A stretch of DNA of 64,000 bases from Bacteriovoracia bacterium (lineage in GTDB: Bacteria; Bdellovibrionota; UBA1018; CAIPTA01): positions 1,248,001 through 1,312,000 of the forward strand of contig JBFWVL010000001.1 in assembly GCA_050246755.1 (NCBI GenBank). The letters are read 5' to 3'. The stretch's first letter is position 1. The number at the start of each line of letters is the position of its first letter. Below, piece by piece: positions 1 to 60,832 of this stretch. Under the pieces are notes generated by a model. The model worked only from the letters and a program-made list of their open reading frames with translations. It did not search any database and had not been told where the DNA came from. Both the position numbers and the translations under genes were made by a program.

Positions 1-132
1 AAATTCTACGATTTTTTCTTTGCGCACGAAAAAAATAGGATCATCGGTATTTTCCGATACTACTTCCTCAATGGCATCGCCGTAACGGGCTTTGATCCTG
101 TCGATTTTTTCCTTCGGAAAATCCATCTTCAT
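1..132 (-). CDS. nuoC: NADH-quinone oxidoreductase subunit C (or CD), N-terminal part; runs off the left edge
   Basis: My translation [44 protein letters not shown]; ATGA overlap with the nuoB stop; position after nuoA-nuoB. Confidence 0.75.
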
Positions 133-611
133 TGCAGCATCGCCTTACTTTTTTTAATTTTTTCCTGGAGCCGCATCACGCCGTGAATCACGCCCTCAGG
201 AGAGGGCGGGCAGCCGGGAATATAGATGTCCACCGGAATTACTTCATCCGCACCCTGCATAACACTGTAGGTATCGAAAATGCCGCCGGAAGAAGAACAA
301 GCGCCCATTGCGATCACCCACTTAGGATCGGCCATTTGCTCATAGAGAGTCTTGAGCACGGGGCCCATCTTCTCCGTGATCGTGCCGGCGATGATCATCA
401 TATCGCTCTGACGAGGAGAAAAGCGCACCACCTCGGCGCCGAAACGCGCAAGATCGTAGTCGGCCGAAAGCGTGGCCATCATCTCGATTCCGCAGCAGCT
501 CGTACCGAAAGGATAGGGCCAGAGAGAGTTGGCTCTCGCCCAATTTACAAAATCTTCCAGTCTAGTAGTTAAAACATCCGGTGCGCCGTCTTTTGGCATA
601 TCGCCCCCCAT
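129..611 (-). CDS. nuoB: NADH-quinone oxidoreductase subunit B (canonical)
   Basis: [34 protein letters not shown] and PGCPP motifs (N2 cluster ligands). Confidence 0.97.
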
Positions 612-636
612 TCAGGCCGCTTCTGCGGCCCAGAAA

Positions 637-999
637 CTATTCCCACTCGAGCCCGCCGCGGCGCCATTCGTATAAAAAGGCCACGGTAATCATGGTCATG
701 AAAAATAGCATTACGCCGAGGATGAAAAAGTTCACCCCGAGAAATTTCCGGTACGCGAGGGCCCACGGAAAGAGCAGGGCTACCTCCACATCGAATAATA
801 GAAAAGAAAGTGCCACGAGATAGAAGCGAACCGAAAAACGCTTTCTCGCGTCTCCACTAGGAGGTACGCCGCATTCGTATACGGAATTTTTGAATTTATT
901 AGGTCGCTTTGGTCCCAAGAGAGCCGCGCCGAAAATTACGGCGAACGAGATGCCTAACCCCACGAGAAACAAAAGCAAAACCGGAAAATACCCGGACAT
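637..999 (-). CDS. nuoA: NADH-quinone oxidoreductase subunit A (canonical)
   Basis: Three TM helices, YECG loop, FLLFDVE, C-terminal YEWRRGGLEW. Confidence 0.97.
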   Translation of the reverse strand: MSGYFPVLLLFLVGLGISFAVIFGAALLGPKRPNKFKNSVYECGVPPSGDARKRFSVRFYLVALSFLLFDVEVALLFPWALAYRKFLGVNFFILGVMLFFMTMITVAFLYEWRRGGLEWE

Positions 1000-1041
1000 G
1001 CTGCACCCCCTAATGTGTGCAAAAAATTTAGCATGTTGGAT

Positions 1042-2496
1042 TTATTTAAGAAAGACTTTTGCAGTTTCGAAAAGTAAGGCAAATACCCGATGCCAAAGGA
1101 ATCCAAGCGCGGCGAGAGCAACGATTGCGACGGCTAACGAGAGCCACTCCAACGCGCCGTACCGAAACAGAACAAGAGGCGCAGTGTTTGTCGACGACGA
1201 AGCGCGTTGGCGGAATAGTAAATCCGTTCCCACGCGAATGGAAATTAGCGAAAGGGTGGCCACCAGCAGTACTTCGGCCGCGAGGAAAAATAGGGATTTC
1301 TGTTCCATCATCGCCGCCAAAAGATTCAATGCCATGGGAAATCCAGGTAAACCAGGAATGCAAAGCGGGCTGGCGAGCGCCAATAATAGCAATAACCCCG
1401 AAGAGCGAAACGTGCGCGCGGCACCGTAGACATCTTTTAAATTTTCGCCGCCGGCACTTTCTTGAAATCGTCCCCAGTTAAAACCCAAAAGACTGGTCCA
1501 AACAAAAACCGAGGCAAAAGCATAGGTAATGGAGGATGCACTAAGTACGGTCGGCAATGCACCGGCCACTAAAATGGCCGACCACTGCGCGCCCACTAGG
1601 GCACTGAAAAGACGCTTTGAATTTTCCTGCGTGAGCGCCACTAGGGCCAGCCAAAAGCCACCGCTAAGCCCACAGAGCTGTAACGTGCGCAGTCCCTCGG
1701 AAACTTCCCCGGGCCGAGCCTTGCCAAAAACCTCCACTCCCATTTTCCACAAAGCGAGGGTAACCGTTCCCTGCCAGATCACGGAAAGGGTTACCACTAC
1801 CGGCCAGGGCATTCCTTGGTCGCGATCCACGTGCGCAAAGTGAAATGGAAAGAGTCCGGCGGCCATCACGAAGGGCAGGCAAAGCGCAAACACCACGAGA
1901 AGCGCGCTGAGGGAATAAATCGATTGCGCGTGAAGAAAAGAAGAGATCACATCATAGTGAACGCCGCCGGCGACCACGGCCAGAGCCGTAGCCGCGCCAA
2001 ACCCACCCGCCATTACCAGAGAAGCTTGAATCCAGTACTTCAAGACGGCTTCCCCTTCACCGCGACCCCGAAACGCCAGGCCGCCGAGGAAAAGAGATAA
2101 CCACGATCCGCAAACCAGAAGGATAATCGAAAGGGTCATCTGTCGGGAAAGCAGCAAGAGATCACAAAGCATTACCAGCGTGGAAAGCAGGAAAAGAACT
2201 TCGTGTTTTCTTTTTGCGGGTAACTCTTTGGTGGCCACAACGCCGCGCCCCAGGAGAAGGGCCGCCACGAAAAGAGCCGCACGCGGCAAACGGAAAAGCG
2301 GTTGATCTTCCAGAAGCCCGAACCAGATTTGGGACTGATCGGCCGATTGGCCCACGGCCAAGGTTGCCATTGCCGCCAAAAATCCGAGGCTTGAAAGAAA
2401 TTCAATCGCCGTGCGCGAGCGAGAACTGCGGTTAAAAAGCAGCGCCACTCCTTGCGCTAGCGTGGCTAATCCGACGACTAAAATCGATAAGGGCAT
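1042..2496 (-). CDS. nuoN: Divergent NuoN-like antiporter-type membrane subunit
   Basis: EAVLKY motif, FPFH, IPGLPGF, ~14 TM helices; last gene of the nuo-like operon; GAGGT RBS. Confidence 0.8.
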   Translation of the reverse strand: MPLSILVVGLATLAQGVALLFNRSSRSRTAIEFLSSLGFLAAMATLAVGQSADQSQIWFGLLEDQPLFRLPRAALFVAALLLGRGVVATKELPAKRKHEVLFLLSTLVMLCDLLLLSRQMTLSIILLVCGSWLSLFLGGLAFRGRGEGEAVLKYWIQASLVMAGGFGAATALAVVAGGVHYDVISSFLHAQSIYSLSALLVVFALCLPFVMAAGLFPFHFAHVDRDQGMPWPVVVTLSVIWQGTVTLALWKMGVEVFGKARPGEVSEGLRTLQLCGLSGGFWLALVALTQENSKRLFSALVGAQWSAILVAGALPTVLSASSITYAFASVFVWTSLLGFNWGRFQESAGGENLKDVYGAARTFRSSGLLLLLALASPLCIPGLPGFPMALNLLAAMMEQKSLFFLAAEVLLVATLSLISIRVGTDLLFRQRASSSTNTAPLVLFRYGALEWLSLAVAIVALAALGFLWHRVFALLFETAKVFLK

Positions 2497-2508
2497 GCCG
2501 ACCTCAAA

Positions 2509-3963
2509 CTAATTGCCATTTAATCCTTTCAGCAGGGCCGCCACCGATACTCCCATGGGCCCCAGAAGCAGGCTCGGCAAAACCCCTAAAACCAAAAGCA
2601 CCAGACCAAGCGGTGCAATCGCAAGAATCTCTTCCCAAACCAAGTCGTGAAACTCTCCGCGATCTCCATCACCGGCCCCGGCGTCGAGACGAAAAAACAT
2701 AATGCTCATCCCAGCAAAAGCAACCACCGGAACTGCTAGCGTAACCACGAGCAGCGGCCAGCTATGCACCCCGCTCAGCGACCAAATAACGAAAAGTACC
2801 CCGTAGAATCCAATGGAAACCGGCAGAAAGAGCGCAAAAAGGGAGGCCGCCGCCGTGCTGAGCGCAAAGGCAGGAAATTCACGGATTCTTTGGAGCGGTA
2901 AGGGGAATTTTCTTCTCTCGTGACAAGCAAGCACGAAGAGCATGAACGGAATAGAGAGCGTTTGGAAAAATAGGAGAATAAGAGAGCCGTGCCACCCTTT
3001 GGGATTTAAATTGAACAAGCCGATGGCGATGAACGAGCAAACGGTCTGCTGCAACCAAAATACGCGATCGCGCGCCTGGCGTGCGCCGAGAAAATTCAGC
3101 GCACAGTAAAGGGCGCCGATGGAGAAAAAGGCCAGAAGGTAATGGCCGAACCGCAAAAGCTCGCCGGGAAAAAGCTCCACCACGAAACGAGAGAGCAAAG
3201 TAAATCCCAGAAGCGGCTGCAGCGCTAGCGGCACCGCTTTTTCTACGGATTCCATTTCGAATATCCGGCGGGTGCTGCCGTGAAAGGGAAATATTCCGGC
3301 GCCGATCCCGAATGCCAGCAGCAATAATCCAAAGCCGATCGACCCCGGCAGTACCATATAGGTATCGCCCGATAGTCGGAACCACTCCCCGATGGAACCA
3401 CGGAATCCCTCCGAGAACGCCAGCACGCAAAGCAATAACGACAATGAAGCGATGGTAGAGAGAAAAGCCGCCTCGCGTACCGGCTCAATGCGATTTTCCT
3501 TTGCGTCTACCCCGGAAAATATAAATCGGGGGAGTAATGCGCCGGCAAAGAAAACAGAGAAAAGCAAAAGGTGATCAGCGCCTAGGGCACCGAGCACACA
3601 AGTCAAGTAGGCGGAAAGGCTGGCTACCGAGGCGCGGGATTTCTCGAGCATTCCCCTCGCCAGAAAGTGATAGCAAACGGTTACGGAAGAGACCGCTAGC
3701 GCCAATATTCCCGAATGAAATACCCAGCGGAGGCCCGTGTGATTCGACCAAGCGCTCTGGGCGAGAATCGCCGGAGAAAGCACGCTTCCGGCGTATTCGT
3801 TGGGCGAATAGAAGCCGATGGCCAAAAACAGAAAACAAACCCAAGAGAGAAGGTGCACCAACAACGAAAATGCCCAGAGCTTCTTCCCGCGCACGGGACC
3901 GCAAGCCGCCACCGTGACGAGCAGAGGCAAAAACGTAGCGATTAGTCCCGCCCAGCCTTTCAC
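2509..3963 (-). CDS. nuoM: Divergent NuoM-like antiporter-type subunit (second M copy)
   Basis: GIFPFH, LPVSIGFYG and NuoM-type C-terminus DLVWEEILAIAPL..LGVLP; GTG start at 3963 overlaps the upstream TGA. Confidence 0.75.
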   Translation of the reverse strand: MKGWAGLIATFLPLLVTVAACGPVRGKKLWAFSLLVHLLSWVCFLFLAIGFYSPNEYAGSVLSPAILAQSAWSNHTGLRWVFHSGILALAVSSVTVCYHFLARGMLEKSRASVASLSAYLTCVLGALGADHLLLFSVFFAGALLPRFIFSGVDAKENRIEPVREAAFLSTIASLSLLLCVLAFSEGFRGSIGEWFRLSGDTYMVLPGSIGFGLLLLAFGIGAGIFPFHGSTRRIFEMESVEKAVPLALQPLLGFTLLSRFVVELFPGELLRFGHYLLAFFSIGALYCALNFLGARQARDRVFWLQQTVCSFIAIGLFNLNPKGWHGSLILLFFQTLSIPFMLFVLACHERRKFPLPLQRIREFPAFALSTAAASLFALFLPVSIGFYGVLFVIWSLSGVHSWPLLVVTLAVPVVAFAGMSIMFFRLDAGAGDGDRGEFHDLVWEEILAIAPLGLVLLVLGVLPSLLLGPMGVSVAALLKGLNGN

Positions 3964-5303
3964 AGGATCCCCCCGGCCAGCTGCGTGGCCACGACAATGA
4001 AACACATCAGGAAAACTCCATACCCAGCGAAAGCGGCCGGGGCCGACTCGAGAGAGGATTCCGCTCCCGGCTCAGGAGGACGATCATCCACAAAAATTCT
4101 TCGGCAGATATGCACGTTGGCGCAGAAGTAAAAAAACCAAAGCAAGCCGAATACGATGCCGTAGCTGATACCGAGATCGAGGGAACGAGCGCCGATCCCA
4201 CTGAAAATCTGAAACACCGGGGTGCCGGGCACTCCGAGGATAAGCGCGAAAAGAATTCCCACGAAAACCTTCTGTAGCGGGCGCACCACTTTGACCACCG
4301 AAGCATAAAGTACTAGCCCGGTGAATACTGGTACGAAGAGACAGGTAAAGTACGCGGATAGTACTAAGCTTGTCTTCGAGACTCCCACCGAAACCAAAAT
4401 GAGCGAAAAGAAAAAACTCGGTAGGCTTCCCAGCATTTTTCGCCTGGATCCGGCCGCAAAAAGACCGCTGATAGAAAAGGCGCAGCCGGAGATTCCCAGT
4501 AGATACAAAGCCAGCTTCTGCTTCCACCCCATATCGGGATAAACCACAGAAAAAAGCGTGGATATCTTCAAGGCCACCGCGCTGATGAAGGTAACCAAGG
4601 TAACGGTTACGCCTTCCGGAAGATTTTCCACCGCCATACTGAACCATCGGGACCATGGCGGAAGCGGAATCGAGAGCACTACAAGGCCCAGCCAGATAAA
4701 TAAACCGAGCGAAGAACCGGAGCGGGGGCCGAATAGCATATCCTTCGCGCCGAATTCCACCACGCCCCATACAATCATCAGCAGTCCCAACAAGAAGTAG
4801 AGGCTATACATACGGCGGGAAATTCTATCTCCCATCTCACGACTGGCCCCGGCAATGGCAAAGCGAATTAGGTAGAAGAACACCGCCGCCGCCAGCAAAA
4901 GCAAACCCCCAGTAGCTACCGCGTTGTTAGAAATTATAAAAAGGCTGGTAAACGCCTGCGCCAGCGATAGCAGCACGCTTACCACTCGCAGGCCGCCCGC
5001 CACCGCCCCCATCGCATGGGCAAAAAGAAAGCAGAGTTCTGCGGTGAGCAAAAAACCAAGCCGGAAAGAATCAAGCGAGAGCACGAATTCGAGCGGATAA
5101 CCATCAGCAAGCGAGGTAGAAATTTCAATTACCGCTCCGCCAAATACAACCGGGCGTAAAAGCACGATGAGAAGTAGAGCGCGAAGGCTCGACGCGATGA
5201 TCCCCGGGGAAACGAGCCTTTTGTGAAATGCATTCGGCAAAGGTATCGCGGCGGCGAAGGGCAAAACTATATACAGTAAGAATATTAGCCGTTCTAAGCT
5301 CAT
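3960..5303 (-). CDS. Divergent NuoM/MrpD-like antiporter-type subunit (first M copy)
   Basis: LSLDSFRLGFLL (cf. GIDGISLL), IPLPPWSRW (cf. PLFPFHTW), LGVPGTPVF; ATGA overlap with the upstream gene. Confidence 0.65.
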   Translation of the reverse strand: MSLERLIFLLYIVLPFAAAIPLPNAFHKRLVSPGIIASSLRALLLIVLLRPVVFGGAVIEISTSLADGYPLEFVLSLDSFRLGFLLTAELCFLFAHAMGAVAGGLRVVSVLLSLAQAFTSLFIISNNAVATGGLLLLAAAVFFYLIRFAIAGASREMGDRISRRMYSLYFLLGLLMIVWGVVEFGAKDMLFGPRSGSSLGLFIWLGLVVLSIPLPPWSRWFSMAVENLPEGVTVTLVTFISAVALKISTLFSVVYPDMGWKQKLALYLLGISGCAFSISGLFAAGSRRKMLGSLPSFFFSLILVSVGVSKTSLVLSAYFTCLFVPVFTGLVLYASVVKVVRPLQKVFVGILFALILGVPGTPVFQIFSGIGARSLDLGISYGIVFGLLWFFYFCANVHICRRIFVDDRPPEPGAESSLESAPAAFAGYGVFLMCFIVVATQLAGGIL

Positions 5304-7048
5304 TTAGCCCCCAGGAGAAAGAGCACTCCGGCGAAAAGCGTGAGCACGGTTCCAAAAAACAAATAAAAGCGAATATTTCCGGAATGAAGAAAACGCATCA
5401 GCCGAGAAAGCGAGGATCCGTAAGCGAGAAAACCACCCGGAAATTTCTCGGCAAAGAGCATCCGATCCGTCTCTTGCAGGGCACTGGCAGCGCGAATATT
5501 TATGGTTCCAGCTCTAAGCGCAATCCAGTCCATTCCTTTTTCGGGCGCAAGCACGGCCGCCTGATTCCAGCGGACAACCGCAGGATCGATTCGCGGAAAA
5601 AGATCTTCCATTTTCTTTTCCTTATTGGCGCTCCAAATACTAAGGCGAGAATTAGCTCCAAGGAGCATACCCGCCAACCCTCCCACCAGCAGGGCGGCCC
5701 CGCGCACTACAAGGGAAATATCGGATAAGAAATCTATCGGGAACTGAAGCAGCCCGGACAACCCATCGTAGGCCCGGAATAGAGCGGCCAGTTGAATCAG
5801 GATAACCAGTGACGCGGGCAAAACCGCGGAAGCGAAAGTAAAATTATTTTCCTTCTCTTTGTTCTGCCGCAGAGAACCCACCAATGCCTTCACGGCCACC
5901 AGAGAAAGCAGAAAAGTGAGTATTCCCATGATGGCTATTTTCAAGATCGTTTCCCGATTCTCGGTATGCGCCGAAGGTACGCTCGTAAAAGGAACCACGC
6001 CGGAGATGATTCCCAGCAAAAACAGTGTGGCTAAGAATATGAGCGCCGTTCGCCACGCTTGGGCACTTTGGCGGGCGAAGCGGAGCAAAAGGCTTAGGGC
6101 GTAACAAGAAAGCAGGCCCATCGCTTCGAAGGCTCCCCAGCTTAATTCTTCCGGCTTTAAAGACGAGAAGCGCAGAAAGAGGATGTATCCAAAAATGCCG
6201 AATAACATCCAAAAGCTGGCGCTAAGCGTGGTGGAGGCGAGAAAAGACAAAGCCGAAAACAGTGCCGTGGCAACTGCAAATAGCGCCGAAAGCGGGATCC
6301 ATAATTCGCCCGACATGTCCTCGTGGATAACTCTACCCAGCAGAAAAAAGGCCGTACCCGCCTGAATCAACGCGAGCGGAACATAGCGCCACTCGCTGAA
6401 ATTATGCTTAGAAAGCATGAATGCCATCACGTAAAGCACCATGCCGAGCAGAACGACGGAGCTATTGGTAAAGAAGCTCGCCGCGGTGAGGCCGAGCATC
6501 GCGATCAATCCGAGAAATAAAAAACTATTTCGCTTAAAATAGGAAATTCTCTCGAGCTCGCCCTCTGTGCCGCCCATTTCTAGGCTGAAAGAATGCAAGA
6601 GGAAAACGGTGATTTCGATGAACATCAGCGAAAGGAGCGCGTTCTCGCTCAAGTAGGCGAGGGCCAGGAATAAGAACGAACCGCTTAGGAATAGAAAGCG
6701 CAGCGTACCCCTCGCGCCGCCGAAGGAAGAAGCGCCGTCGAACATGACCAAACCAAGCAAAACGGAGGCAGAAAGAAAAATCCAAACGTACCGCACCCAA
6801 TACATGAGTAACGACGGCTCAAAATAGCCGGAAGTGTCGGTGGAAAGGGGCAATAGAAATTCCATTTTCACCGGAAGCTCAAACTGAAAAATCCCGATTA
6901 GGGAGGCGAGCAGCATCGTGCCGAACAAAATAAGACCGCCACGCTTCTCGGAATCGGAACGGCGATCGCTCTTAAGCGCAAACAAAACCAGCGCCGCAAG
7001 CGGGGCGCAGAATATAAGCAGTGGCACTACGATATTCCCAAAATTCAT
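5300..7048 (-). CDS. Divergent NuoL-like subunit
   Basis: SENALLSLMFIE (TM5 Glu); amphipathic C-terminal helix ending RFLHSGNIRFY plus a final TM (cf. NuoL LQSG..Y); position after the K-like gene. Confidence 0.7.
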   Translation of the reverse strand: MNFGNIVVPLLIFCAPLAALVLFALKSDRRSDSEKRGGLILFGTMLLASLIGIFQFELPVKMEFLLPLSTDTSGYFEPSLLMYWVRYVWIFLSASVLLGLVMFDGASSFGGARGTLRFLFLSGSFLFLALAYLSENALLSLMFIEITVFLLHSFSLEMGGTEGELERISYFKRNSFLFLGLIAMLGLTAASFFTNSSVVLLGMVLYVMAFMLSKHNFSEWRYVPLALIQAGTAFFLLGRVIHEDMSGELWIPLSALFAVATALFSALSFLASTTLSASFWMLFGIFGYILFLRFSSLKPEELSWGAFEAMGLLSCYALSLLLRFARQSAQAWRTALIFLATLFLLGIISGVVPFTSVPSAHTENRETILKIAIMGILTFLLSLVAVKALVGSLRQNKEKENNFTFASAVLPASLVILIQLAALFRAYDGLSGLLQFPIDFLSDISLVVRGAALLVGGLAGMLLGANSRLSIWSANKEKKMEDLFPRIDPAVVRWNQAAVLAPEKGMDWIALRAGTINIRAASALQETDRMLFAEKFPGGFLAYGSSLSRLMRFLHSGNIRFYLFFGTVLTLFAGVLFLLGAK

Positions 7049-7063
7049 CCGTTAAAACTCCAG

Positions 7064-7384
7064 CTAATGCCGCAAACTATCTTCTTCATCCACATCCAGC
7101 GTTCCGCGAAATCGGCTACAGCGGTGCAATACCAGCAGACCCACCGCCACGAGCGCGGGAACCATTCCCAATGCCACTAACGAGAGCACGATGAGATCTC
7201 CGCCGCCGGAAGAAAAATATTGCGAGAATAAAAATCCACATGCCACCACGGCCTTAAGTGCGGTGGCCTGACCCACCAGCCCCCATGCCGCCACCCGGCG
7301 CAGCGCGATGGCCGAAAGGCCCGCCACAAATACGGCCAAGAGCAAGATCACGTTAATTTTGTTTGCCACCGAGGTTAAATCCAT
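7064..7384 (-). CDS. Divergent NuoK-like subunit (106 aa)
   Basis: Real start at the internal ATG 7384 (TAATG overlap); 3 TMs, GLSAIALRR and C-terminal RFRGTLDVDEEDSLRH typical of NuoK. Confidence 0.7.
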   Translation of the reverse strand: MDLTSVANKINVILLLAVFVAGLSAIALRRVAAWGLVGQATALKAVVACGFLFSQYFSSGGGDLIVLSLVALGMVPALVAVGLLVLHRCSRFRGTLDVDEEDSLRH

Positions 7385-7878
7385 TACCGCTCCCTCCGCA
7401 CAAGGAAGAATCCTCCGGTAACGATTACGATCAGGAAAAGCAGCGGAATCACCGCTAGCAGCCAGTCGGAGGTCCAGATTTTTTCGTGGAGCAGAGACAA
7501 ACTTGGCGCCGGCGTCACCCCCGGTGGCATCAACTCCTCGAGCTCCAAGATCGCCAGCGCGCCGGTGACCACCGAGCAAAGGCCTAGCCATAGGAAAAAC
7601 AGGCGATACAGCCAATCGGCACGGCGATTGCGGGCCGGGCGCGCGGGAAGCAGTTCTTGGGTGCGAAAATAAAGATAAATAGCGAAATCGGCCGAAAGAA
7701 ATACCGCAATCATCATAATCCCAAAGTATCCGCCACTCATGAGTTCTACGGCCGCGCCCAAGCCAATGGAGCAAAGAATAGATCCCCAGAGTAAACGTTC
7801 GGTGGAATCGGCGGTGATCGCCATAATCGCGGAAATCAATGCCAACGCCAAACAGCTGCCAACAAAAAATGAGATCAT
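7384..7878 (-). CDS. Divergent NuoJ-like subunit
   Basis: Five TM helices, 164 aa, position between I and K, ATGA overlap. Confidence 0.65.
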   Translation of the reverse strand: MISFFVGSCLALALISAIMAITADSTERLLWGSILCSIGLGAAVELMSGGYFGIMMIAVFLSADFAIYLYFRTQELLPARPARNRRADWLYRLFFLWLGLCSVVTGALAILELEELMPPGVTPAPSLSLLHEKIWTSDWLLAVIPLLFLIVIVTGGFFLVRRER

Positions 7879-8348
7879 CGTCTCACCTCGTAAGTACGAA
7901 TACGGGTGATGTCTTTATCGCTCTTCTGGCCGCCACCACGAAATACGGCGATTAAATCTTTCGTGCTCTCGGTAACGATTTCAAATTCTTTGGAATAGGA
8001 AAGGCTAGCCTCGGGACAGATCTCGATACAAACACCGCACGAAAAGCATTTTCCCAAATGAATATTGAATTCTTGCACGCGAATCGTACCGTCGCGCAGG
8101 TTCTCGGAAGTAAAATCAATTGCCTTCACCGGACAGGCCGGAACGCAAAGACCGCATCCACTGCACTTCGATAAATCATTGGTCACGTAGCCCTTATAGC
8201 TAGTGAACATGTCTAATGGGGCCTTGGCGGACACTAGGTCTGGATACTTTTCCACGACGCTTTTGTAACGATGCTTCGTACGGCGCAGAAAGCCGAAATT
8301 GATTTTCAGCGTGCTCTTGAGGGCGTTAATTACCTGCCTGACCTTCAT
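7875..8348 (-). CDS. nuoI: NuoI-like 2x[4Fe-4S] ferredoxin subunit
   Basis: CSGCGLCVPACP and CFSCGVCIEICP motifs, EKYPD; start at 8348 with ATGA overlap. Confidence 0.85.
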   Translation of the reverse strand: MKVRQVINALKSTLKINFGFLRRTKHRYKSVVEKYPDLVSAKAPLDMFTSYKGYVTNDLSKCSGCGLCVPACPVKAIDFTSENLRDGTIRVQEFNIHLGKCFSCGVCIEICPEASLSYSKEFEIVTESTKDLIAVFRGGGQKSDKDITRIRTYEVRR

Positions 8349-9280
8349 CCGCGCACCCCCACCCAAACGGCTTCGAGAAAGAATCCGATGAGACATAGAC
8401 GCAATAGCCAGCGGGCCGCCAATTCACTGGCGTCGGCCGAGCGAATCTTAGGAAAACTAGCCTGCAGAAGGGTGAACACGAATATTCCGGCCGCCACTTT
8501 CAGCGGAAAGAGAACTTTCACGATGAGCCCGCTGGCCCCTCCGCAAAAAACGTATACCCAGAAACAAATCAAAGAGAATACCCACATTTTCTGCACGAAA
8601 ATCGTGATGTATTGCATCGAGTGATTGAGGCTCTGCTCATCTTGCAGCTGCACTGGACTTTCCGTGGCGAAAAGGAAAATGGAGCAGAAGGCGGTTATGC
8701 CGCAAAGGAAAAGACCCGGACTGCTCAGCAGCGCGTGATAGGGGAAATAAATCTGAAAATCCGAAATCGCGCTCAAGTTGAGCTGACCCACCCTTAGGGT
8801 TACGGCGAAAACCGATAGCAGCAATCCCGAAACTCCCATCGCCCGAAGCAAAAGCCGGCGGCGGCGGTCGAAACGCTCGCGTGAATCGGCGGTGGCATGC
8901 ACCAGCAGCGCCTCTAAAGCGGCCGCGATCATCGGAAAAAGCAGCAGGAGTGGAAGATCAATTTGATCGCCGCCCTCCGGGTAAGTTACCGCCAGCAAAG
9001 CCAGCAGGAATACTATGGGAAGAATTCGCCAAACCAAGGAGGCGAGACGTATCCGAAACGGCAGGGCCAATAAATCCGCCGGCTTCTTTTTCCGGGTTTT
9101 CTGAAAATCTTTCCAGACCTGAAAAAAATCCGTTTGCCCATGCCGGCCGGGCCCGTCGCGATGCTGCACGCGAGCAGCGACGAAGCGTTCGCAAAAAAGA
9201 AGGAAGAAGGTTCCCCCAAAGAGAAAGAGTAGCGAGCCCACGAGCGCCGCCCCGGCGAGCAAGAAATCTAGCGCACTCAT
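8345..9280 (-). CDS. nuoH: Divergent NuoH-like subunit
   Basis: ERFVAARVQHRDGP, Q..KD..K and C-terminal ASFPKIR motifs of the NuoH/ND1 family. Confidence 0.8.
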   Translation of the reverse strand: MSALDFLLAGAALVGSLLFLFGGTFFLLFCERFVAARVQHRDGPGRHGQTDFFQVWKDFQKTRKKKPADLLALPFRIRLASLVWRILPIVFLLALLAVTYPEGGDQIDLPLLLLFPMIAAALEALLVHATADSRERFDRRRRLLLRAMGVSGLLLSVFAVTLRVGQLNLSAISDFQIYFPYHALLSSPGLFLCGITAFCSIFLFATESPVQLQDEQSLNHSMQYITIFVQKMWVFSLICFWVYVFCGGASGLIVKVLFPLKVAAGIFVFTLLQASFPKIRSADASELAARWLLRLCLIGFFLEAVWVGVRG

Positions 9281-10380
9281 TTGTCTACCTCCGAAAAGGA
9301 GATATCGAGCGAATGAATCACGAGGAAAGCGTCTTCCGCGTGAATTCCGCGCAGCAGGCGCGGCAGCACCTGAACCGCCATAGCCGAAGGGCAGAAAAAA
9401 CTTACTTGCGACGGCTGCGAACGGCCATCGGATTCAACCATCGCGTAGATAGCTCCGCGAGGGCCCTCCACGCCACAAACTGCTTTTCCGGGCGCCGGGC
9501 GCACGTCTAGACCCACCCGGATGCGGTGGTTACCCGAAGGAATATGGCGAAATACGGATTCGATGAGCTGAGCCGACTGCAAAATTTCCCGCTTGCGAAT
9601 GTGTGCGCGGTCGAACGCGTCTCCCAGATAATTCCTCGAGGTGTCTAGCATCATCTCTGTGCCACGATAAGCGCCGTAGGGGCGCGAAACCCGAAGATCG
9701 CAGTCCGCTAAGCCGCTCGCACGCGCGTTAGGACCAGTAATATTCCAATTTTTAACCATCGCCGCATCTAACTGGCCCAAACCCCGGGTGCGCTTTTCGA
9801 AAAACGGGTGCGTAAGGAGGGAGCTTTCTAGATCCGGCAAAAATTCTCTTAAGCTGGCCACGGCTTTTTCGATTTTAAAAAACCATCCGTCGGTGGCGTC
9901 GCTGATCACTCCACCAAGGCAAATAGAGCCGAAACCAAGGCGCGAACCGCAATACATCTCAAATATATCCGCGAAGCGCTCGCGTTCCCGGAGGCAGTGA
10001 TTCATGATCGCAGCCTGCCCGGCAGCCCTGGCCAAATTTCCGTAGTAATGAAGATGGCTGGCAATTCGGTTGAGCTCGAGCAGAATTAGGCGAATCTGCT
10101 CAGACCGAGCCGAGATTTCTATGCGCAGCAAGTCTTCGCAGGCCGAGGCAAGAGCGAAATTGAAGGCCGGAGCCGCGAGATAATCGAGGCGATCCATGTA
10201 ATTTAGGGCTTGGGCTAAAGGTAGCTGCAATGCGATCGCTTCCAGGCTACGGCGTCCATAACCCACGGTCATCCGGGCGTCGGCCACTAAGCCACCGTCT
10301 TCTTCGAGCTTCAGCCCGAAAGCACCGATTCCCTGCGTTCCCGCAAGATACATAGGAGTATAATCTAAAGTGGTCGCCAC
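9277..10380 (-). CDS. nuoD: Divergent NuoD-like (49 kDa) subunit
   Basis: DRLDY, ELNRIASHL, TGPNARASG, VEGPRG, SLDISFSEVDK; no NiFe CxxC motifs; probable GTG start at 10380. Confidence 0.85.
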   Translation of the reverse strand: MATTLDYTPMYLAGTQGIGAFGLKLEEDGGLVADARMTVGYGRRSLEAIALQLPLAQALNYMDRLDYLAAPAFNFALASACEDLLRIEISARSEQIRLILLELNRIASHLHYYGNLARAAGQAAIMNHCLRERERFADIFEMYCGSRLGFGSICLGGVISDATDGWFFKIEKAVASLREFLPDLESSLLTHPFFEKRTRGLGQLDAAMVKNWNITGPNARASGLADCDLRVSRPYGAYRGTEMMLDTSRNYLGDAFDRAHIRKREILQSAQLIESVFRHIPSGNHRIRVGLDVRPAPGKAVCGVEGPRGAIYAMVESDGRSQPSQVSFFCPSAMAVQVLPRLLRGIHAEDAFLVIHSLDISFSEVDK

Positions 10381-10757
10381 GTGGCGTCCCTTTCTGGAAT
10401 CATGCCGGCGAACTCTACTCCGTTGAAAGTGCGTAGCTCTTCTTCCCACCAAAGACTAAACGGCCAGAGGGCGCTGGGGCGCGGAAAGGCCGAAGAAGGA
10501 GCAACTTCCAGAATAAAAAAGATCGGTTCATTTCCGCACGTAAGCAGCAGCTCGATGGAAAGATTCGTGCCCGCGCCGGCCGTCGATAACCCATGCAAAG
10601 CGGGGCGTTCGCCAGAGGGTAGCGCGCCCCAATGCTCGAGCAATTTTGCCAGCTCCGAAGTTCCCGCCTGGACGCGAGAAACTTTATCTCCGGCCGCAGG
10701 GGTGCCCGGCACCTTCACGATGCCTCCCCAAATATTTTTTTCTCCGCCTGATCTCAC
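10365..10757 (-). CDS. Short divergent NuoC-like subunit
   Basis: SALWPFSLWWEEELRTFNGVEFAG resembles the NuoC motif S...WP.A.W.ERE..D.FGI.F.G; lies between B and D; GTGA overlap. Confidence 0.6.
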   Translation of the reverse strand: MRSGGEKNIWGGIVKVPGTPAAGDKVSRVQAGTSELAKLLEHWGALPSGERPALHGLSTAGAGTNLSIELLLTCGNEPIFFILEVAPSSAFPRPSALWPFSLWWEEELRTFNGVEFAGMIPERDATWRPL

Positions 10758-11203
10758 GACGCGGACCTCCGGATTTTTTCCTGCAATTTAATCAGCGCAT
10801 GAATCAATGACTCCGGTCGTGGAGGACAGCCCGGAATAAAAAGATCCACGGGAATTATGGCCTCGAGACCCGGGATACGATGTTTTCCTTCGGCCGAAAA
10901 CATTCCACCGGTGCTGGCGCAACTGCCAACGGCCACCACGAATTTTGGATCGCGCATCTCGGCGTAAATCTTTTTCAGTTCTTCGGCAATGCCGGGAGTT
11001 ACCGGGCCTGAAACAAAGAGCACATCGGCGTTACGATGATCGGTCACAATCCGGCAACCGAGCCTCTCCCAATCGAATCTCGGTCCGGAAGCAGCTTCCA
11101 CTTCCAGGGTACAGCAAGAAAGCCCCACATGATAAACCCATAACGAATCCGCGAGCGCGGATTTTGGCTGAGAGGGAGCGGATTCTTTTTGGATCTCCAT
11201 CAT
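10754..11203 (-). CDS. nuoB: Second NuoB-like Fe-S subunit
   Basis: SLWVYHVGLSCCTLE, RFDWERLG, GSCASTGG, IPGCPPRPE. Confidence 0.9.
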   Translation of the reverse strand: MMEIQKESAPSQPKSALADSLWVYHVGLSCCTLEVEAASGPRFDWERLGCRIVTDHRNADVLFVSGPVTPGIAEELKKIYAEMRDPKFVVAVGSCASTGGMFSAEGKHRIPGLEAIIPVDLFIPGCPPRPESLIHALIKLQEKIRRSAS

Positions 11204-11577
11204 TGGTTTTCCTTATCGGGCCACTCGAGATTGTCTATCCACTTCAGGTAGCTTTTACGGCCGCCGTACCAAAGTAGGGCCAGCATCAACGCGGGAAAAA
11301 TCAAAACCTTTCCCATCACCAGCCAGCGGTCGTGCATTTCGAGGGAAACTATTTTTTGCCGGTACGAAGCCCACATCGGCAAAGAGAGTGCGATTCCGCA
11401 CCAGAGCATTAGCAGCCAAAGAACGTGATAGAATGAACGGAACGCACCTTCCGGGGCGCCGTTCCCTGGCTCACGAATTCCCTGAACCTTTTCGAGACGA
11501 TCCCATAGCACGAGCACCAAAATGGCCACAAAAAGCAGCACTGCTGGAATTAAAAAGAGGAGAAATCTAGAATACAT
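11200..11577 (-). CDS. Divergent NuoA-like subunit
   Basis: Three TMs; FYHVLWLLMLWCGIALSLPMWASYRQK and WYGGRKSYLKW align by eye to the canonical NuoA in this window; first gene of the operon; AAGGA RBS before ATG 11577. Confidence 0.6.
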   Translation of the reverse strand: MYSRFLLFLIPAVLLFVAILVLVLWDRLEKVQGIREPGNGAPEGAFRSFYHVLWLLMLWCGIALSLPMWASYRQKIVSLEMHDRWLVMGKVLIFPALMLALLWYGGRKSYLKWIDNLEWPDKENQ

Positions 11578-11679
11578 CTGCCGTCCTTGAGTTTCAGTGC
11601 CTCTTCCCACAGCCATATTCACCCGGCGGCAATGCCGATCCGGATCCTTGAAATGCCTAATGTGAGAACTGACCTAGGA

Positions 11680-11708
11680 AGCGTAAGAACTTTGCAGGAA
11701 CGTGTCAA
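11680..11708 (-). promoter_or_regulatory. Sigma70-like promoter for the divergent nuo-like operon
   Basis: Minus-strand TTGACA (11708-11703), 17 nt spacer, TACGCT (11685-11680). Confidence 0.6.
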
Positions 11709-11736
11709 GAATTATGCTGTAATATGGGATAGTTAG

Positions 11737-14700
11737 ATGTCGCAATCCGCCGGTAAAAAACAGTCCGCAGTTTCGCTCAACGGGCTTTCCCCGGCGGCCT
11801 TCGCTTATCTGCTTCCGGAACTTCTGAGCGAAGGCAATGAATTGCGGGCAGTTGTGCTCGTAAGCGATGAGAGCGCGGCGGACCAAGTTGCGGAAGATAT
11901 CGCTTTTTTTGCGGACTTTCGGGGCGGTGCGTGGAAACACACTTCCTTGTTACGTTTGGGGGGGTGGGAGCAAAGCCCTTACCGAAACCTCCAGCCCGGT
12001 CTTTCCGCCCGGCTCGATCGCATCAAAGCGAGTCACTTTCTCGTTTCACCCAGCTCCAACCGAAACTGGATTCTGGTCAGCTCCGCCCGTTCATTTCTTC
12101 AGGCCGCCGCCACCCGCGAGCATTTAACCGAAACGGTTCAAGTGGGTAAGGGCATCGCTATTCATCCGGAAACCTTAGCCGCCCAACTTACTAAAATAGG
12201 CTACACGAAAACCGAAAACGTAGAAGATCCCGGAAACTTCAGCGTGAGGGGCGGGATCGTGGATGTATTTCCCCCTTCGCTGGAAAATCCCGTGCGCCTT
12301 GAATTCTTCGATGAGGAAATCGAGTCCGTTCGCATATTCAATCCCGAAACTCAACGCAGCGTGCGCCTGCTTTCCGAAAAAGAAACCGTAGAACTGATCC
12401 CGGTACGCGAGTTCACCTGCGATCCCCTGAGCCTCGCCGCGGCCAGAGAAACGATCAAGGAATGGTGTGATCAGCACGATCTCCCGCGGGCGGCAAGGGA
12501 AAGAATAGGCCTATTGCTGAGCCAAGGCGTGGCCACGCCCGAAATGGATTATTTGCTGCCCTTTTTCCGGAACGAGCAAACCTGGCCGGTCCAGCTTTTA
12601 CCTCCCGGCGTAACCCTTTGCATTTTCGAGCCAGAAATCTTCCGCGAAACCGTGGCGGCCTGGCGGGAAAAAGAAGAAGAACTATATAAGAACAGTTTAG
12701 ATAGGCAGCAGGTAGTTCCCGAGCCCGATCGATTGTTCATGCCGCTCAACACCGCGCTCGCCCCGGAACGCTGGAATAAAATTATGGAAACCCGCGAGCT
12801 CGCCCTCGGCGAAGGTTCGCCGCGCTTCGAGCGCATCCGGCTGGGATCCAAGAAAAAAGCCACCGACATGCCGGGCCTCATGCGCACCCTCACAAGTATG
12901 CGGGAGCGCGGCACCACCACGGTTATAGTGGCGAATTCTCAGTCGCAGCTCGATCGCGTACTTTTCCTGCTCAATCAAAGTAAAGTGCGCGCGGTGGCGG
13001 TGAAGGGTGAATTCGACCTGCCGAAAGATCCCTCGATCGTAGCCCTTGCGCTCGGCCAGCTCTCCGAGAGTTTTCACCTCCTCGAGAAAAAAATCGCTTT
13101 CCTTTCCGAAGACGAGATCTTCGGTGAAAAACAGCATATTCACCGGCCGGGACGTAAGCGTTCCGCGGCGCCCACCGTTACGATGGACGATCTCGTAGCG
13201 GGCGATATGGTGGTGCATATCGAGCACGGAATCGGACGTTACGTGGGGCTGGCGCGGGTAAAAGCGCTGGGCAATGAGGGCGATTTCGTTCAGCTGGAAT
13301 ATGCCGACGGCGATAAGCTTTATATTCCGGTTTACCGCCTCGAAGGCCTTTCCCGCTACGTGGGAACATCGGGCGAAAACGCATCGCTCGACCGCCTTGG
13401 CTCAGGCTCTTTCGCAAAAACGAAAGATAAAGTAAAAGCCGCGATCAAAGACATCGCCCAGGACTTGCTACGGGTACAGGCTGAGCGCGAGCTCCGCGAG
13501 GGTTACGCCTTTTCCTCTCCCGACGACGAATATCGCCGCTTTGAAGCCGAATTCCCTTTCGACGAAACGCCGGACCAGGCCAAAGCCATTCAGGAAACTA
13601 TCGATGATATGACCGAAGGAAAGCCCATGGATCGTCTCGTATGCGGCGACGTGGGTTTTGGAAAAACGGAAGTGGCCATCCGGGCGGCGTTCAAGGCCGC
13701 CCAGGATGGGAAGCAGGTGGCGGTGCTGGTGCCCACCACGATCCTCGCCGAGCAGCACTACCTCACGTTCAGTCAAAGAATTTCTTCTTACCCCTTTAAG
13801 ATCGCAAGTCTCTCTCGCTTCAAAACGCGCAAAGAACAAGCCGAGATCCTAGAAAATCTGGCGGCCGGAAAAATAGACATCGCGATCGGAACGCATCGTT
13901 TGCTTTCCAAAGACGTAAAATTTAAAGAGCTCGGCCTCGTGATCATCGACGAAGAACAGCGCTTCGGCGTGGAGCACAAGGAAAAATTAAAACAACTGAA
14001 GGCTACGACCGACGTGCTCACGCTCACGGCCACGCCCATTCCCCGCACCCTGCAGATGTCGCTGATGGGCTTAAAAGACGTGAGCATCATCCGCACCCCG
14101 CCGGGCGATCGCCTTTCTATCAAAACCCACCTCGCTACTTTCGATCACGAACTGATCCGCGACGCGATTCGCACCGAGCTCAGCCGGGGCGGGCAAGTTT
14201 TTTTCATCCATAATCGCATACAAACCATTGGAAAAATGGAAGAGTTGCTTCAGCGGCTGGTGCCCGAGGCGAAATTCGTAGTGGCGCATGGCCAGATGGC
14301 CGAGGGACAGCTCGAGCGGGCCATGATCGGCTTTTATCAGAAAAAGTTCGACGTGCTGATCGCTACCGCCATTATCGAAAATGGTCTCGACGTGCCCAAC
14401 GCGAACACGCTGATAGTAAATCGTGCCGATACCTTCGGCCTCTCGCAACTTTACCAAATCCGGGGCCGCGTGGGCCGCTCCCAGACGCGAGCCCATGCGT
14501 ATTTTCTGCTGCCCGAAAATGCATCGGTCAGCGACGAGGCCCGCGAGCGATTGTCGGTACTGCAGCGATTCGTGGAACTGGGTAGCGGCTATATGATCGC
14601 CACGCACGATCTAGAAATCCGGGGCGGGGGCGATGTTCTTGGCCAGGCTCAGTCCGGCCACATCGCGGCCGTGGGTTATGAAATGTATATCGAATTGCTG

Positions 14701-15186
14701 CAGGAGGAAGTGCAGCGGCTGAAGGGTGAAAAAATCGCGGAGCCACTCGCCGAGGTGGAGATCAACGTTCCCTTCTACGCCGTTCTTCCCGATAACTATG
14801 TTCCCGACATGAAAGCTCGACTGGCTCTTTATCGTCGTCTCTCCGCGATGCGCACCGAAGAGCAGACCGACGATGCCCGCAAAGAACTCGAAGATCGATA
14901 CGGGCTTTTGCCAAAAGAGACCGAGGAATTACTCTGCGTGCTCCGCCTCAAGGTTCTGATGCGCCGGATGGGCCTGAAAACTCTTTCGCTCGGACCCAAA
15001 GGCATGAGCTTAACACCAGGTAAGGATCCTATTTTCGAGCCAGCGCTCATTCTGCAGCTCGTTCACACGCAACCGAAAGAGTACTCGATTCTTCCCGACG
15101 GAAAGTTTGTGATTCAGGGAAGTTTTCGTTCAGCGTCCGAGCTATATGATCGGTTGCGTCAAATGCTGAACAGCTGCACGCAGTGA
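11737..15186 (+). CDS. mfd: Transcription-repair coupling factor
   Basis: CarD/RID domain (GDMVVHIEHGIGRY), CGDVGFGKTEVA, DEEQRFG, ATPIPRTL, C-terminal TRCF domain. Confidence 0.98.
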   Translation: MSQSAGKKQSAVSLNGLSPAAFAYLLPELLSEGNELRAVVLVSDESAADQVAEDIAFFADFRGGAWKHTSLLRLGGWEQSPYRNLQPGLSARLDRIKASHFLVSPSSNRNWILVSSARSFLQAAATREHLTETVQVGKGIAIHPETLAAQLTKIGYTKTENVEDPGNFSVRGGIVDVFPPSLENPVRLEFFDEEIESVRIFNPETQRSVRLLSEKETVELIPVREFTCDPLSLAAARETIKEWCDQHDLPRAARERIGLLLSQGVATPEMDYLLPFFRNEQTWPVQLLPPGVTLCIFEPEIFRETVAAWREKEEELYKNSLDRQQVVPEPDRLFMPLNTALAPERWNKIMETRELALGEGSPRFERIRLGSKKKATDMPGLMRTLTSMRERGTTTVIVANSQSQLDRVLFLLNQSKVRAVAVKGEFDLPKDPSIVALALGQLSESFHLLEKKIAFLSEDEIFGEKQHIHRPGRKRSAAPTVTMDDLVAGDMVVHIEHGIGRYVGLARVKALGNEGDFVQLEYADGDKLYIPVYRLEGLSRYVGTSGENASLDRLGSGSFAKTKDKVKAAIKDIAQDLLRVQAERELREGYAFSSPDDEYRRFEAEFPFDETPDQAKAIQETIDDMTEGKPMDRLVCGDVGFGKTEVAIRAAFKAAQDGKQVAVLVPTTILAEQHYLTFSQRISSYPFKIASLSRFKTRKEQAEILENLAAGKIDIAIGTHRLLSKDVKFKELGLVIIDEEQRFGVEHKEKLKQLKATTDVLTLTATPIPRTLQMSLMGLKDVSIIRTPPGDRLSIKTHLATFDHELIRDAIRTELSRGGQVFFIHNRIQTIGKMEELLQRLVPEAKFVVAHGQMAEGQLERAMIGFYQKKFDVLIATAIIENGLDVPNANTLIVNRADTFGLSQLYQIRGRVGRSQTRAHAYFLLPENASVSDEARERLSVLQRFVELGSGYMIATHDLEIRGGGDVLGQAQSGHIAAVGYEMYIELLQEEVQRLKGEKIAEPLAEVEINVPFYAVLPDNYVPDMKARLALYRRLSAMRTEEQTDDARKELEDRYGLLPKETEELLCVLRLKVLMRRMGLKTLSLGPKGMSLTPGKDPIFEPALILQLVHTQPKEYSILPDGKFVIQGSFRSASELYDRLRQMLNSCTQ

Positions 15187-29149: not shown

Positions 29150-29151
29150 AC

Positions 29152-31679: not shown

Positions 31680-31688
31680 ATTAGTACT

Positions 31689-31717
31689 ATTATACGCAGA
31701 ATTACACGCAGTGTTAA
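31689..31717 (-). promoter_or_regulatory. Near-consensus sigma70 promoter
   Basis: Minus-strand TTAACA (31717-31712), 17 nt spacer, TATAAT (31694-31689), 9 nt before ATG 31679. Confidence 0.65.
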
Positions 31718-31766
31718 TATAATTAAACAATTAATATAAAATATTGATTTTATTGATTATTATTGT

Positions 31767-49655: not shown

Positions 49656-49667
49656 CAGGAGAAATAA

Positions 49668-56263: not shown

Positions 56264-56400
56264 TTTGTCTCCGTGGGTGATTCAAAGATCTAGGCGCAAC
56301 CTAGCATACTTGATTAAAATGGTACAACATAAAATTTAATAAAAGCGCCACCTTAGCTCCACCGAGGGGACGACCAAAAAAGCCGCGTGATTTTATATAG

Positions 56401-59923: not shown

Positions 59924-60093
59924 AAGTCACCGCCCGTTTGAACTTCCAGAACTACTATTCGGTTGAGAAAGAGCAAATCACTCTTTTTACAGAGTGAAAA
60001 ATCAGATTTCACCATAGCAAAATCCCCGTGATTTTTCAAGAAATGAGGGGCGAGTGCGAGGCGGAAATCAGAGACGAAATTCGGACATTTTAC

Positions 60094-60734: not shown

Positions 60735-60832
60735 GCGGAAACTCTCCTTCGAGCTAGAACAAATAAGGATTTGGGAGCGTGAGATTTTTGTAAGGATGGG
60801 GAGTGATGCGGATTTTGATGCGGAAGGTGTAG

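Follow-up and report, generated by a model that had tools for sequence, protein, structure and literature searches.

A 64,000-nucleotide stretch of the genome of a Bacteriovoracia bacterium (positions 1,248,001 to 1,312,000 of contig JBFWVL010000001.1, assembly GCA_050246755.1), referred to below in its full length as the window, carries directly upstream of a canonical nuoA-N operon a second set of twelve intact genes in nuo order, whose products are distinguished here by primes (A', B', C', D', H', I', J', K', L', M1', M2' and N'). The explanation that we favour, with about even confidence, is that this set encodes a vertically inherited, clade-specific and catalytically degenerate paralogue of complex I, a 'pseudo-complex I' that would serve as a non-pumping accessory or partner of the canonical enzyme. 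Its parts correspond to a Q-module plus a membrane arm, with no module for the oxidation of reduced nicotinamide adenine dinucleotide (NADH), and the twelve proteins would, most likely, still form a membrane complex of complex I shape with a short iron-sulfur (Fe-S) relay, in which N6a and N6b would always be kept and N2 in most lineages.

Judged by its residues, such a complex cannot operate as a redox-driven proton pump of the canonical type, and a canonical quinone reductase is unlikely too. N', M2' and M1' have lost the hydrophilic axis, D' the quinone-site His and Asp, and H', A' and K' the E-channel carboxylates that were tested. Its role would then be structural or regulatory, and not that of an independent energy-converting enzyme.

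Organization of the primed operon

The twelve open reading frames (ORFs) lie on the minus strand from 11622 down to 1042, and no gene for E, F or G is among them. The features of the region are as follows, in the order of transcription.

11708-11680, minus strand: promoter-like site, TTGACA-17 nt-TACGCT, read from the sequence; weak evidence
11200..11622, minus strand: A', NuoA-like, three transmembrane helices (TM); likely start ATG 11577 (125 aa) as in relatives, longest ORF from GTG 11622
10754..11203, minus strand: B', NuoB-like, carrier of cluster N2; PF01058 at 1.4e-28, NF005012 at 157 bits, above cut-off
10365..10757, minus strand: C', truncated NuoC-like protein of 130 aa; hhalign to canonical NuoC 95.7%
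9277..10380, minus strand: D', NuoD-like, 367 aa from GTG 10380; PF00346 at 7.3e-49
8345..9280, minus strand: H', NuoH-like; PF00146 at 3.5e-15
7875..8396, minus strand: I', NuoI-like, 2x[4Fe-4S]; likely start ATG 8348 (157 aa); Fer4 families, TIGR01971 NuoI at 1.9e-19
7384..7878, minus strand: J', positional NuoJ counterpart of 164 aa; position, size and hydrophobicity only
7064..7384, minus strand: K', NuoK-like, 106 aa; PF00420 at 2.3e-06, hhalign to canonical NuoK 95%
5300..7048, minus strand: L', NuoL-like by fold, 582 aa; Foldseek on the AlphaFold2 (AF2) model
3960..5303, minus strand: M1', antiporter-like by fold, 447 aa; fold, and hhalign to M2' 93.7%
2509..3963, minus strand: M2', NuoM-like, 484 aa from GTG 3963; TIGR01972 (NDH_I_M) at 4.5e-22, below cut-off
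1042..2496, minus strand: N', NuoN-like, 484 aa; TIGR01770 (NDH_I_N) at 1.9e-15, below cut-off
1..999, minus strand: start of the canonical operon, with nuoA 637-999, nuoB 129-611 and the 5' end of nuoC from 132 leftwards; ORFs and the downstream genome

A preliminary description of this DNA, made from the letters alone, had reported twelve intact ORFs in nuo order, lacking E, F and G, upstream of a canonical nuoABC, and this was borne out by the ORFs, their families and the genome downstream. The translational coupling that it had counted at eight of the 11 junctions agrees with the ORF coordinates as well: A/B, B/C, D/H, H/I, I/J, J/K, L/M1 and M1/M2 are 1- or 4-nt start/stop overlaps of the ATGA, GTGA or TAATG type, those at H/I and M1/M2 being counted with the starts of I' and M2' used in relatives. 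At the remaining junctions, C' and D' overlap by 16 nt, and gaps of 15 and 12 nt separate K' from L' and M2' from N', respectively. The letters of the proposed TTGACA-17-TACGCT promoter are present, inside the 114 nt that separate A' from mfd, a gene transcribed divergently, but its reading as a promoter was weakened, since only the -35 element is perfect, the -10 element agrees with the consensus at 3/6 positions, and a consensus promoter scanner applied to 500-12000 reported no promoter-like site. A search of Rfam with positions 1-12500 revealed no RNA family.

The stop codon of N' and the start of the canonical nuoA are 42 nt apart, and no terminator-like site was found in this gap of the window. 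The remainder of a complete 14-gene canonical nuoA-N operon, including nuoE, nuoF and nuoG, lies immediately to the left of the window. The genome encodes a single NuoF, in this canonical operon, and two loci each for NuoB and NuoD (primed and canonical); its PF00361 matches are the three canonical antiporter-like genes only. Two peculiarities of the canonical genes were also observed in the clade, a short NuoG (465-481 aa) and, in one relative (L024, equivalent to G169:C34, positions 13114-14907), a fusion of nuoC and nuoD into one 597-aa gene, the two being separate in other family members.

Assignment of the subunits

Five of the twelve primed proteins (B', D', H', I' and K') are recognized by Pfam, and no Pfam or NCBIfam match was obtained for A', C', J', L' and M1'. 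When family, profile and fold evidence were taken together, every primed subunit but J' was supported (11/12). In profile searches against PDB chains, the D' family matched Thermus Nqo4 (2fug_4) at 5.4e-74, the H' family E. coli NuoH (7nyh_H) at 2.8e-22, the M2' family the NuoM chain 8qby_M at 5e-35 and the N' family M. smegmatis NuoN (8e9g_N) at 1.9e-24, the last two being also aligned by hhalign to canonical NuoM and NuoN with a probability of 99.9% each. The match of C' to canonical NuoC spans the N-terminal core of the latter, which measures 217 aa compared to the 130 aa of C'. The canonical profiles used for hhalign were shallow, covering 7 related genomes, and A' reached only 54-73% against canonical NuoA, with no sequence match in the PDB, although its position and size are kept in relatives. 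Profiles of M1', L' (9- and 28-row profiles), J' and A' gave nothing meaningful against PDB chains.

The assignment of M1' and L' was based on structure models, as hhalign against the canonical M, N and L of the clade gave probabilities below 2% for both. The AF2 model of M1' (predicted local distance difference test, pLDDT, 86; predicted TM-score, pTM, 0.91) showed Foldseek TM-scores of 0.7-0.8 to MrpD, NdhD and NuoM/N, and that of L' (pLDDT 63, pTM 0.69) had NuoL, ND5 or NdhF chains as all of its top 45 Foldseek matches, with a best E of 1e-6. Within the primed set, L' was aligned to M2' by hhalign at 58.9%. For J', the probability against canonical NuoJ was 3% and no PDB match was found; a complex prediction of K' with J' scored 0.11 (mark 0.32), which weighs neither way.

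Conserved hydrophilic C-terminal tails that are missing in the canonical counterparts were observed in K' ('RC.RF.GTLD.D.E..LRN'), I' ('RIRTYEVRR') and A' ('YG.R..YLKWI..L.WP'). These tails may be new contact sites between subunits.

Residues of the membrane arm

The canonical reference positions were located by motif in the genome's own NuoL, M, N, K and A and transferred by hhalign; for N' and M2' the transfers agree with HMMER alignments to solved chains. In N', the TM5 Glu corresponds to Val128 of the window (acidic in 0/10 sequences), the TM7 Lys to Ala212 (basic in 0/10), the TM8 Lys to Gln242 (Lys in 1/10, mostly Gln) and the TM12 Lys to Ala389 (0/10). The same subunit retains the TM7 His (10/10), the Lys of the 'EAxxKY' loop (9/10) and, as Lys or Arg, the Arg at the end of TM8 (10/10). 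In M2', numbered from GTG 3963, the TM5 Glu is replaced by Ala140 (0/10), the TM8 Lys by Leu251 (0/10) and the TM12 Glu by Val389 (0/10). Its TM7 Lys is Gly221 in the window; a basic residue (Arg twice, Lys once) is found there in 3/10 sequences, those of three loci that branch more deeply (L011, L012 and L014), and this pattern suggests a stepwise loss. M1', aligned via M2', has Leu136, Ser211 and Phe367 at the positions of the TM5 Glu, TM7 Lys and TM12 Glu. Neither N' nor M2' has a conserved charge within its hydrophobic stretches, except for the counterparts of interfacial Arg or Lys residues.

The carboxylates of the E-channel, looked for in the counterparts of NuoK, NuoA and NuoH, were likewise absent from the positions tested. 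In K', the TM2 and TM3 Glu correspond to Ala40 and Pro76, with no acidic residue among nine sequences at either position. H' keeps the N-terminal ER..Q.R.GP..G..Q..D..K motif and the C-terminal R..D motif, but where E. coli has the Glu of its 'SYE' motif, 9/9 sequences carry a non-acidic residue (Ser, Thr, Ala, Leu, Cys or Gly), and no counterpart exists for the acidic loop 'PFD..E.E.EL..G...EY' of TM5-6. The FDVE stretch of NuoA falls in an alignment gap in A', in an alignment that is itself weak (54-73%).

The antiporter-like Glu/Lys axis was thus missing from N', M2' and M1', and L' is the exception: its Glu145 aligns, at 58.9%, to the TM5 Glu position and is invariant in all 48 full-length sequences, as are Tyr206 and Tyr562. 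Further charged residues are conserved in other subunits, namely K' Lys44, four residues past the lost TM2 Glu (invariant, 9/9), J' Asp64 in a hydrophobic stretch (invariant, 12/12) and H' position 123 (acidic in 9/9; Glu in six, Asp in three).

The preliminary description had compared these subunits by eye with an E. coli-type consensus. Its statement that the pumping residues are missing from N' and both M copies holds in the profile alignments, for M1' only through M2', and so does the lack of the TM2 and TM3 Glu in NuoK. It had allowed for Glu and Lys residues retained at shifted positions; the canonical residues are absent from N', M2', M1' and K', but L' keeps a TM5-type Glu that it had not noted. 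The loss of FDVE stands as far as a gap in a weak alignment can carry it. The claim that J' lacks the TM3 Tyr was neither confirmed nor refuted, as 'GGYFG' of the window, the Tyr of which is present in 5/9 family members, may match the canonical 'VYAGA' (hhalign 3%).

Quinone site and Fe-S ligands

Three residues of Thermus Nqo4, His38, Asp139 and Tyr87, which we take to be quinone-site residues, are functionally important in complex I. Their counterparts in the D' family were identified by alignment to 2fug_4 and family columns. The position of His38 is occupied by Ile or Leu (His in 0/24), that of Asp139 by Ala or Val (acidic in 1/24), and that of Tyr87 by Tyr in 14/24, the remainder being Phe (7), Ser (1), Cys (1) and His (1). 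The D' protein of the window has Ile, Ala and Tyr, respectively.

All cysteines that ligate N2 in NuoB and N6a/b in NuoI had been described as kept in this window, and they are (4/4 in B' and 8/8 in I'). The idea that the Fe-S wire is a trait of the family as a whole could not be upheld. In I', both CxxCxxCxxxC motifs with all eight Cys were intact in 10/10 sequences. The B' family comprises 78 sequences (76 full-length and two fragments), and all four N2 cysteines are present in 61/76 of the full-length ones, whereas between two and four are lost in 15/76, in the patterns CSCS, YSCS, CNCS, CSSS, FSCN, SECS, GDCS and GDSN. These 15 sequences form one side of a single branch with a Shimodaira-Hasegawa-like approximate likelihood-ratio test (SH-aLRT) support of 93 in a quick maximum-likelihood tree; therefore, a single ancestral loss followed by further erosion is likely.

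The B' proteins of the N2-less clade have a mean column identity of 73%, with approximately 70 invariant columns of 144, and both N2-less loci that span the operon (L008 and L036) have the 12 ORFs intact, lie upstream of nuoA and keep 8/8 Cys in I'. Redox chemistry at N2 would be dispensable, N2 having been lost in one clade that persists. The degenerate quinone site of D' and the restricted occurrence of the Fe-S wire are, with the invariant TM5-type Glu of L' and the invariant buried Lys of K' and Asp of J', new relative to the preliminary description.

Distribution, synteny and inheritance

To delimit the distribution of the operon, M1' was used as a query. Its profile gave a full-length match without internal stops in each of the 11 species genomes of one order of the Bdellovibrionota. 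Over the class, 17/127 genomes matched at E<=1e-3, of which 11 strong matches (E<=1e-134) were exactly this order; no strong match was detected in the other 116 genomes, and six weak ones (22-37 bits, ORFs of 325-536 aa) are probably canonical NuoM/N. In a sample of the phylum searched with the single M1' protein, 12/401 genomes matched, these being the window's own genome, 7/7 in its family, 2/2 in the sister family and two marginal matches elsewhere. The L' profile, compared with 1.84 billion representative proteins, gave 36 hits at E<=1e-3, with no canonical NuoL among them. Where a name is given, the relatives of L' are called 'hypothetical protein', and one relative of D' 'subunit D-related protein'.

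Eleven loci span the operon (the window, L007, L008, L009, L011, L012, L014, L024, L027, L036 and L042), and all of them have 12 intact ORFs, without change of order and with little change in length, and the canonical nuoA directly after N', with a gap of 17-162 nt when the longest ORFs are used. A further locus, L039, has the 12 ORFs too, its sequence ending short of the position of nuoA. In a draft contig (L022, equivalent to G392:C1), L' is split (328 + 126 aa), and so is the canonical nuoD (292 + 113 aa), because of which the split in L' was read as a probable assembly frameshift and not as decay. The constant place directly upstream of nuoA, the short gaps and the lack of a terminator-like site in the window suggest a role connected with the canonical enzyme, and the primed genes would probably be transcribed together with the canonical nuoA-N operon that comes immediately after them.

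In a 34-row NuoD tree, the nine D' rows fell on one side of a fully supported branch and the seven canonical rows likewise, but the two groups were not sisters, D' forming its own deep lineage outside the sampled NuoD sequences. The branching order within D' is that found within canonical NuoD. Therefore, the operon was inherited vertically since the ancestor of the order. This tree gave no sign of a recent tandem duplication, with the limit that long-branch artefacts are possible. The closest matches of B' outside the family were NuoB proteins of Ignavibacteriales/Bacteroidetes (48%), compared to 42% for the genome's own canonical NuoB. A descent from a Bacteroidota-type 11-subunit operon was considered and dropped, as the three Bacteroidota-like loci compared (L015-L017) are of the 14-subunit type and closer to the canonical genes, and the NuoD tree shows no more than that D' and the canonical NuoD of the same genomes are not sisters.

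Rate of evolution and constraint

The primed proteins evolve fast. Their amino-acid identity between loci is 17-65%, and when the window was compared with genome G106 the primed subunits were 29-70% identical, whereas the canonical ones were 69-93% identical. The fastest is C', with identities of 27-34% where BLAST detected a match and ratios of non-synonymous to synonymous substitution rates (dN/dS) of 0.33-0.53. Among members of the genus, dN/dS calculated by the method of Nei and Gojobori (NG86) was 0.05-0.43 where computable, values that are rough since dS was saturated (>1.1 or not computable); between the N2-less loci L008 and L036 it was 0.09-0.53 where computable. Relatives with more similar proteins exist, with identities of 82-91% for B' and 85% for D'. 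Codon usage in the primed operon agrees less closely with the genome than that in the canonical operon does (relative synonymous codon usage, RSCU, r 0.86 vs. 0.96; GC content at third codon positions, GC3, 0.59 vs. 0.65).

On these measures, the primed operon is maintained at the protein level and is not decaying. The preliminary description had held that it does not look like decay, and had named dN/dS near 1 together with frequent frameshifts as what would speak for the opposite; neither was encountered, as the operon is present in 11/11 genomes of the order, its frames are intact in 11 loci and dN/dS is 0.05-0.53.

Other features of the window

Six co-oriented genes with Pfam domains that match the menaquinone pathway were detected at 46133-53703 on the plus strand. 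They encode MenF-like (Chorismate_bind), MenD-like (TPP enzyme), MenH-like (alpha/beta hydrolase), MenB (ECH_1, 8.6e-81), MenC-like (MR_MLE_C) and MenE-like (AMP-binding) proteins, and the organism probably uses menaquinone. The region 58512-63972, on the minus strand, contains a phage-type integrase (58512-59678), an FtsK/SpoIIIE ATPase (61741-63201), a TrbI-like protein (63205-63972) and several ORFs without a family, and looks like the edge of an integrative conjugative element. ORFs of 159-573 aa without a Pfam match at E<=1e-5 were found at 23356-24330, 27851-31730, 53707-55187 and 55787-58217.

Comparison with known systems

Canonical complex I (NuoA-N, as in E. coli, T. thermophilus, M. 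smegmatis and P. denitrificans) shares with the primed set its folds and the gene order A, B, C, D, H, I, (J), K, L, M, N, as well as the ligands of N2, N6a and N6b in this window, the N-terminal loop of NuoH and, in N', the TM7 His and the 'EAxxKY' Lys. The primed set differs in having no NuoE, F or G, an extra M-like subunit and a truncated C', and in being devoid of the axis of N', M2' and M1', the Glu pair of NuoK, the Asp/Glu of NuoA, the tested Glu of NuoH and the His and Asp of NuoD; in one primed subclade the N2 ligands are also lost.

Complex I-like enzymes of 11 subunits are regarded as energy-converting and have retained both the pumping residues and the quinone site or its equivalent. 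In the primed set, by contrast, this energy-converting machinery, that is, the pumping residues and the acceptor site, is not retained. The gene set ABCDHIJKLMN without EFG is common to both, the primed set having one M-like gene more and J' by position only. D' is of the short type: its family profile aligns over the full length to the large subunits of MBS/MBH, and D' itself to the 366-aa NuoD model NF008974. Such enzymes without an NADH module include cyanobacterial and chloroplast NDH-1, Fpo and those of anaerobes such as Desulfitobacterium (PMC3144371, PMC11238625).

The 2M complex I of Nitrospira and others is described as having a NuoL lengthened by an insertion of approximately 26 aa within helix HL, and is believed to pump more protons (PMC9040806, PMC6606698). 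As far as these descriptions go, it shares with the primed set a second NuoM-type subunit between L and N and an operon without NuoE/NuoF that occurs beside canonical copies. In contrast, L' is shorter than the canonical NuoL (582 vs. 646 aa) and the pumping residues are missing. The L' model has around 93 residues between TM15 and TM16 (466-558), with pLDDT <50 at 484-507 and 527-574, and is not backed by a residue-level alignment to NuoL.

A comparable gene complement, one N-module set with two sets of the other eleven subunits, is reported for Syntrophobacter (Spero et al., 2015; PMC4453560), where the passages concerned describe the sets as potential isozymes and do not mention degenerate residues. 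Unlike those sets, the primed one is degenerate, lies next to the canonical operon and includes an additional M. In Peredibacter, the arrangement given is a different one, with a nuoAHJKLMN cluster and a 14-gene cluster (PMC13147790). No description of a degenerate nuo operon in Bdellovibrionota was found in the literature, although supplementary tables of complex I surveys could list such operons.

Possible roles of the primed complex

The main rival of the non-pumping partner proposed here is a working redox enzyme that moves electrons without pumping, an 'electron valve' in which ferredoxin, flavodoxin or a shared NuoEFG would feed N6a, N6b and N2, and menaquinone or another acceptor would be reduced at an altered D'/B'/H' site without translocation of charge. 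We regard it as doubtful, yet several observations speak for it: the eight Cys of I' (10/10) and the N2 Cys of B' (61/76 full-length sequences) have been kept over a deep divergence, the N-terminal loop motif of H' is conserved, the single nuoEFG set lies immediately downstream and a menaquinone biosynthesis cluster is found within the window. Moreover, passages of Spero et al. (2015; PMC4453560) deal with a genome in which nuoEFG is single and the other genes are present twice, and which 'could potentially' give two isozymes. On the other hand, the quinone-site His of D' is absent in 24/24 and the Asp in 23/24 sequences, and the Tyr is replaced by Phe, Ser, Cys or His in 10/24; a whole subclade lacks N2 while its B' is still strongly conserved and the 12 ORFs are intact in both of its operon-spanning loci; and a valve gives no clear reason for keeping eight membrane subunits of approximately 2,700 residues. 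Non-canonical ion translocation, through L' Glu145/Tyr206, K' Lys44, J' Asp64, H' Glu123/Lys261/Glu303 and M1' Glu89, would account for buried residues that are invariant or nearly so (L' 48/48, K' Lys44 9/9, J' Asp64 12/12) and for the broken-helix antiporter fold that is kept in M1'. It is quite improbable, as N' and M2', which link the proximal part to L', have no conserved buried charge save the counterparts of interfacial Arg/Lys, and no energy input would be available if the quinone site is inactive.

That single primed subunits replace canonical ones, giving hybrid complexes of altered stoichiometry, would fit two adjacent and probably co-transcribed operons of which the primed one lacks only E, F and G. 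However, BLAST matches between primed and canonical proteins, where there were any, showed identities of only 20-42%, and none was obtained between A', H', J', L', M1' or N' and the window's canonical copy; therefore, shared interfaces are unlikely. The primed genes also form a full set that has evolved as one unit, with trees that are congruent, and we regard such mixing as improbable. A functionless relic, with frames preserved for no other reason than the polar effect that nonsense or frameshift mutations would have on an essential operon downstream, agrees with the fast evolution relative to the canonical genes (29-70% vs. 69-93% identity to G106), the progressive loss of catalytic residues, N2 included in one clade, the weaker codon fit and the lack of a terminator-like site before nuoA in the window. 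Polarity would preserve frames but not amino acids, and the dN/dS values well below 1, the roughly 70 invariant columns of 144 in the N2-less B', the single residues invariant over 48 L' sequences and the conserved subunit lengths leave this explanation highly improbable.

Several observations weigh against the degenerate partner complex that we favour. The 12 Fe-S ligands are kept across deep divergence in most lineages (61/76 B' and 10/10 I'), and this long retention suggests that electron transfer may still matter there. The invariant TM5-type Glu of L' and the buried charges of K', J' and H' make some ion or proton chemistry conceivable. The residue assignments in M1' and L' depend on profile alignments to M2' (93.7% and 58.9%) and not to canonical subunits, the dN/dS values are rough owing to the saturation of dS, and the weaker codon fit would agree with low expression. 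Finally, the assembly of the twelve proteins and any contact with the canonical complex I are inferences.

The preliminary description had proposed a maintained non-pumping paralogous complex, with a valve, a redox sensor or scaffold, or subunits that mix with and tune the canonical enzyme as options. The maintenance and the absence of pumping residues stand, but the valve is weakened by the state of the D' quinone site (His 0/24, acidic 1/24, Tyr 14/24), and among those options the scaffold or partner readings appear to fit best. In a more specific form of the partner explanation, which we put forward tentatively and think rather unlikely as it stands, the whole 12-subunit complex would be a pseudoenzyme, dead or nearly so, that persists because it docks on the canonical complex I expressed with it, as an obligate partner of a structural or allosteric kind (a heterodimer or a supercomplex scaffold, for instance), with the Lys of K', the Asp of J' and the Glu and Tyr of L' acting as structural staples or sensing sites and not as a proton path.

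Significance

Complex I is one of the most conserved energy converters and, to our knowledge, the Glu/Lys axis and the quinone-site Tyr/His count as nearly universal in it. Here, nearly all such residues have been removed from a 12-subunit scaffold that is still under selection across a bacterial order, N2 being gone as well in one subclade. Annotation is affected too: neither Pfam nor NCBIfam has a model that matches L', M1', J', A' or C', and the naming of B' and D' as ordinary NuoB and NuoD may lead metabolic reconstructions to count a second working complex I. In the primed operon, the requirements for building and maintaining an assembly of complex I shape are set apart from those for operating it and, if its product is indeed a partner or regulator of the canonical enzyme, it would represent a new type of respiratory-chain component.

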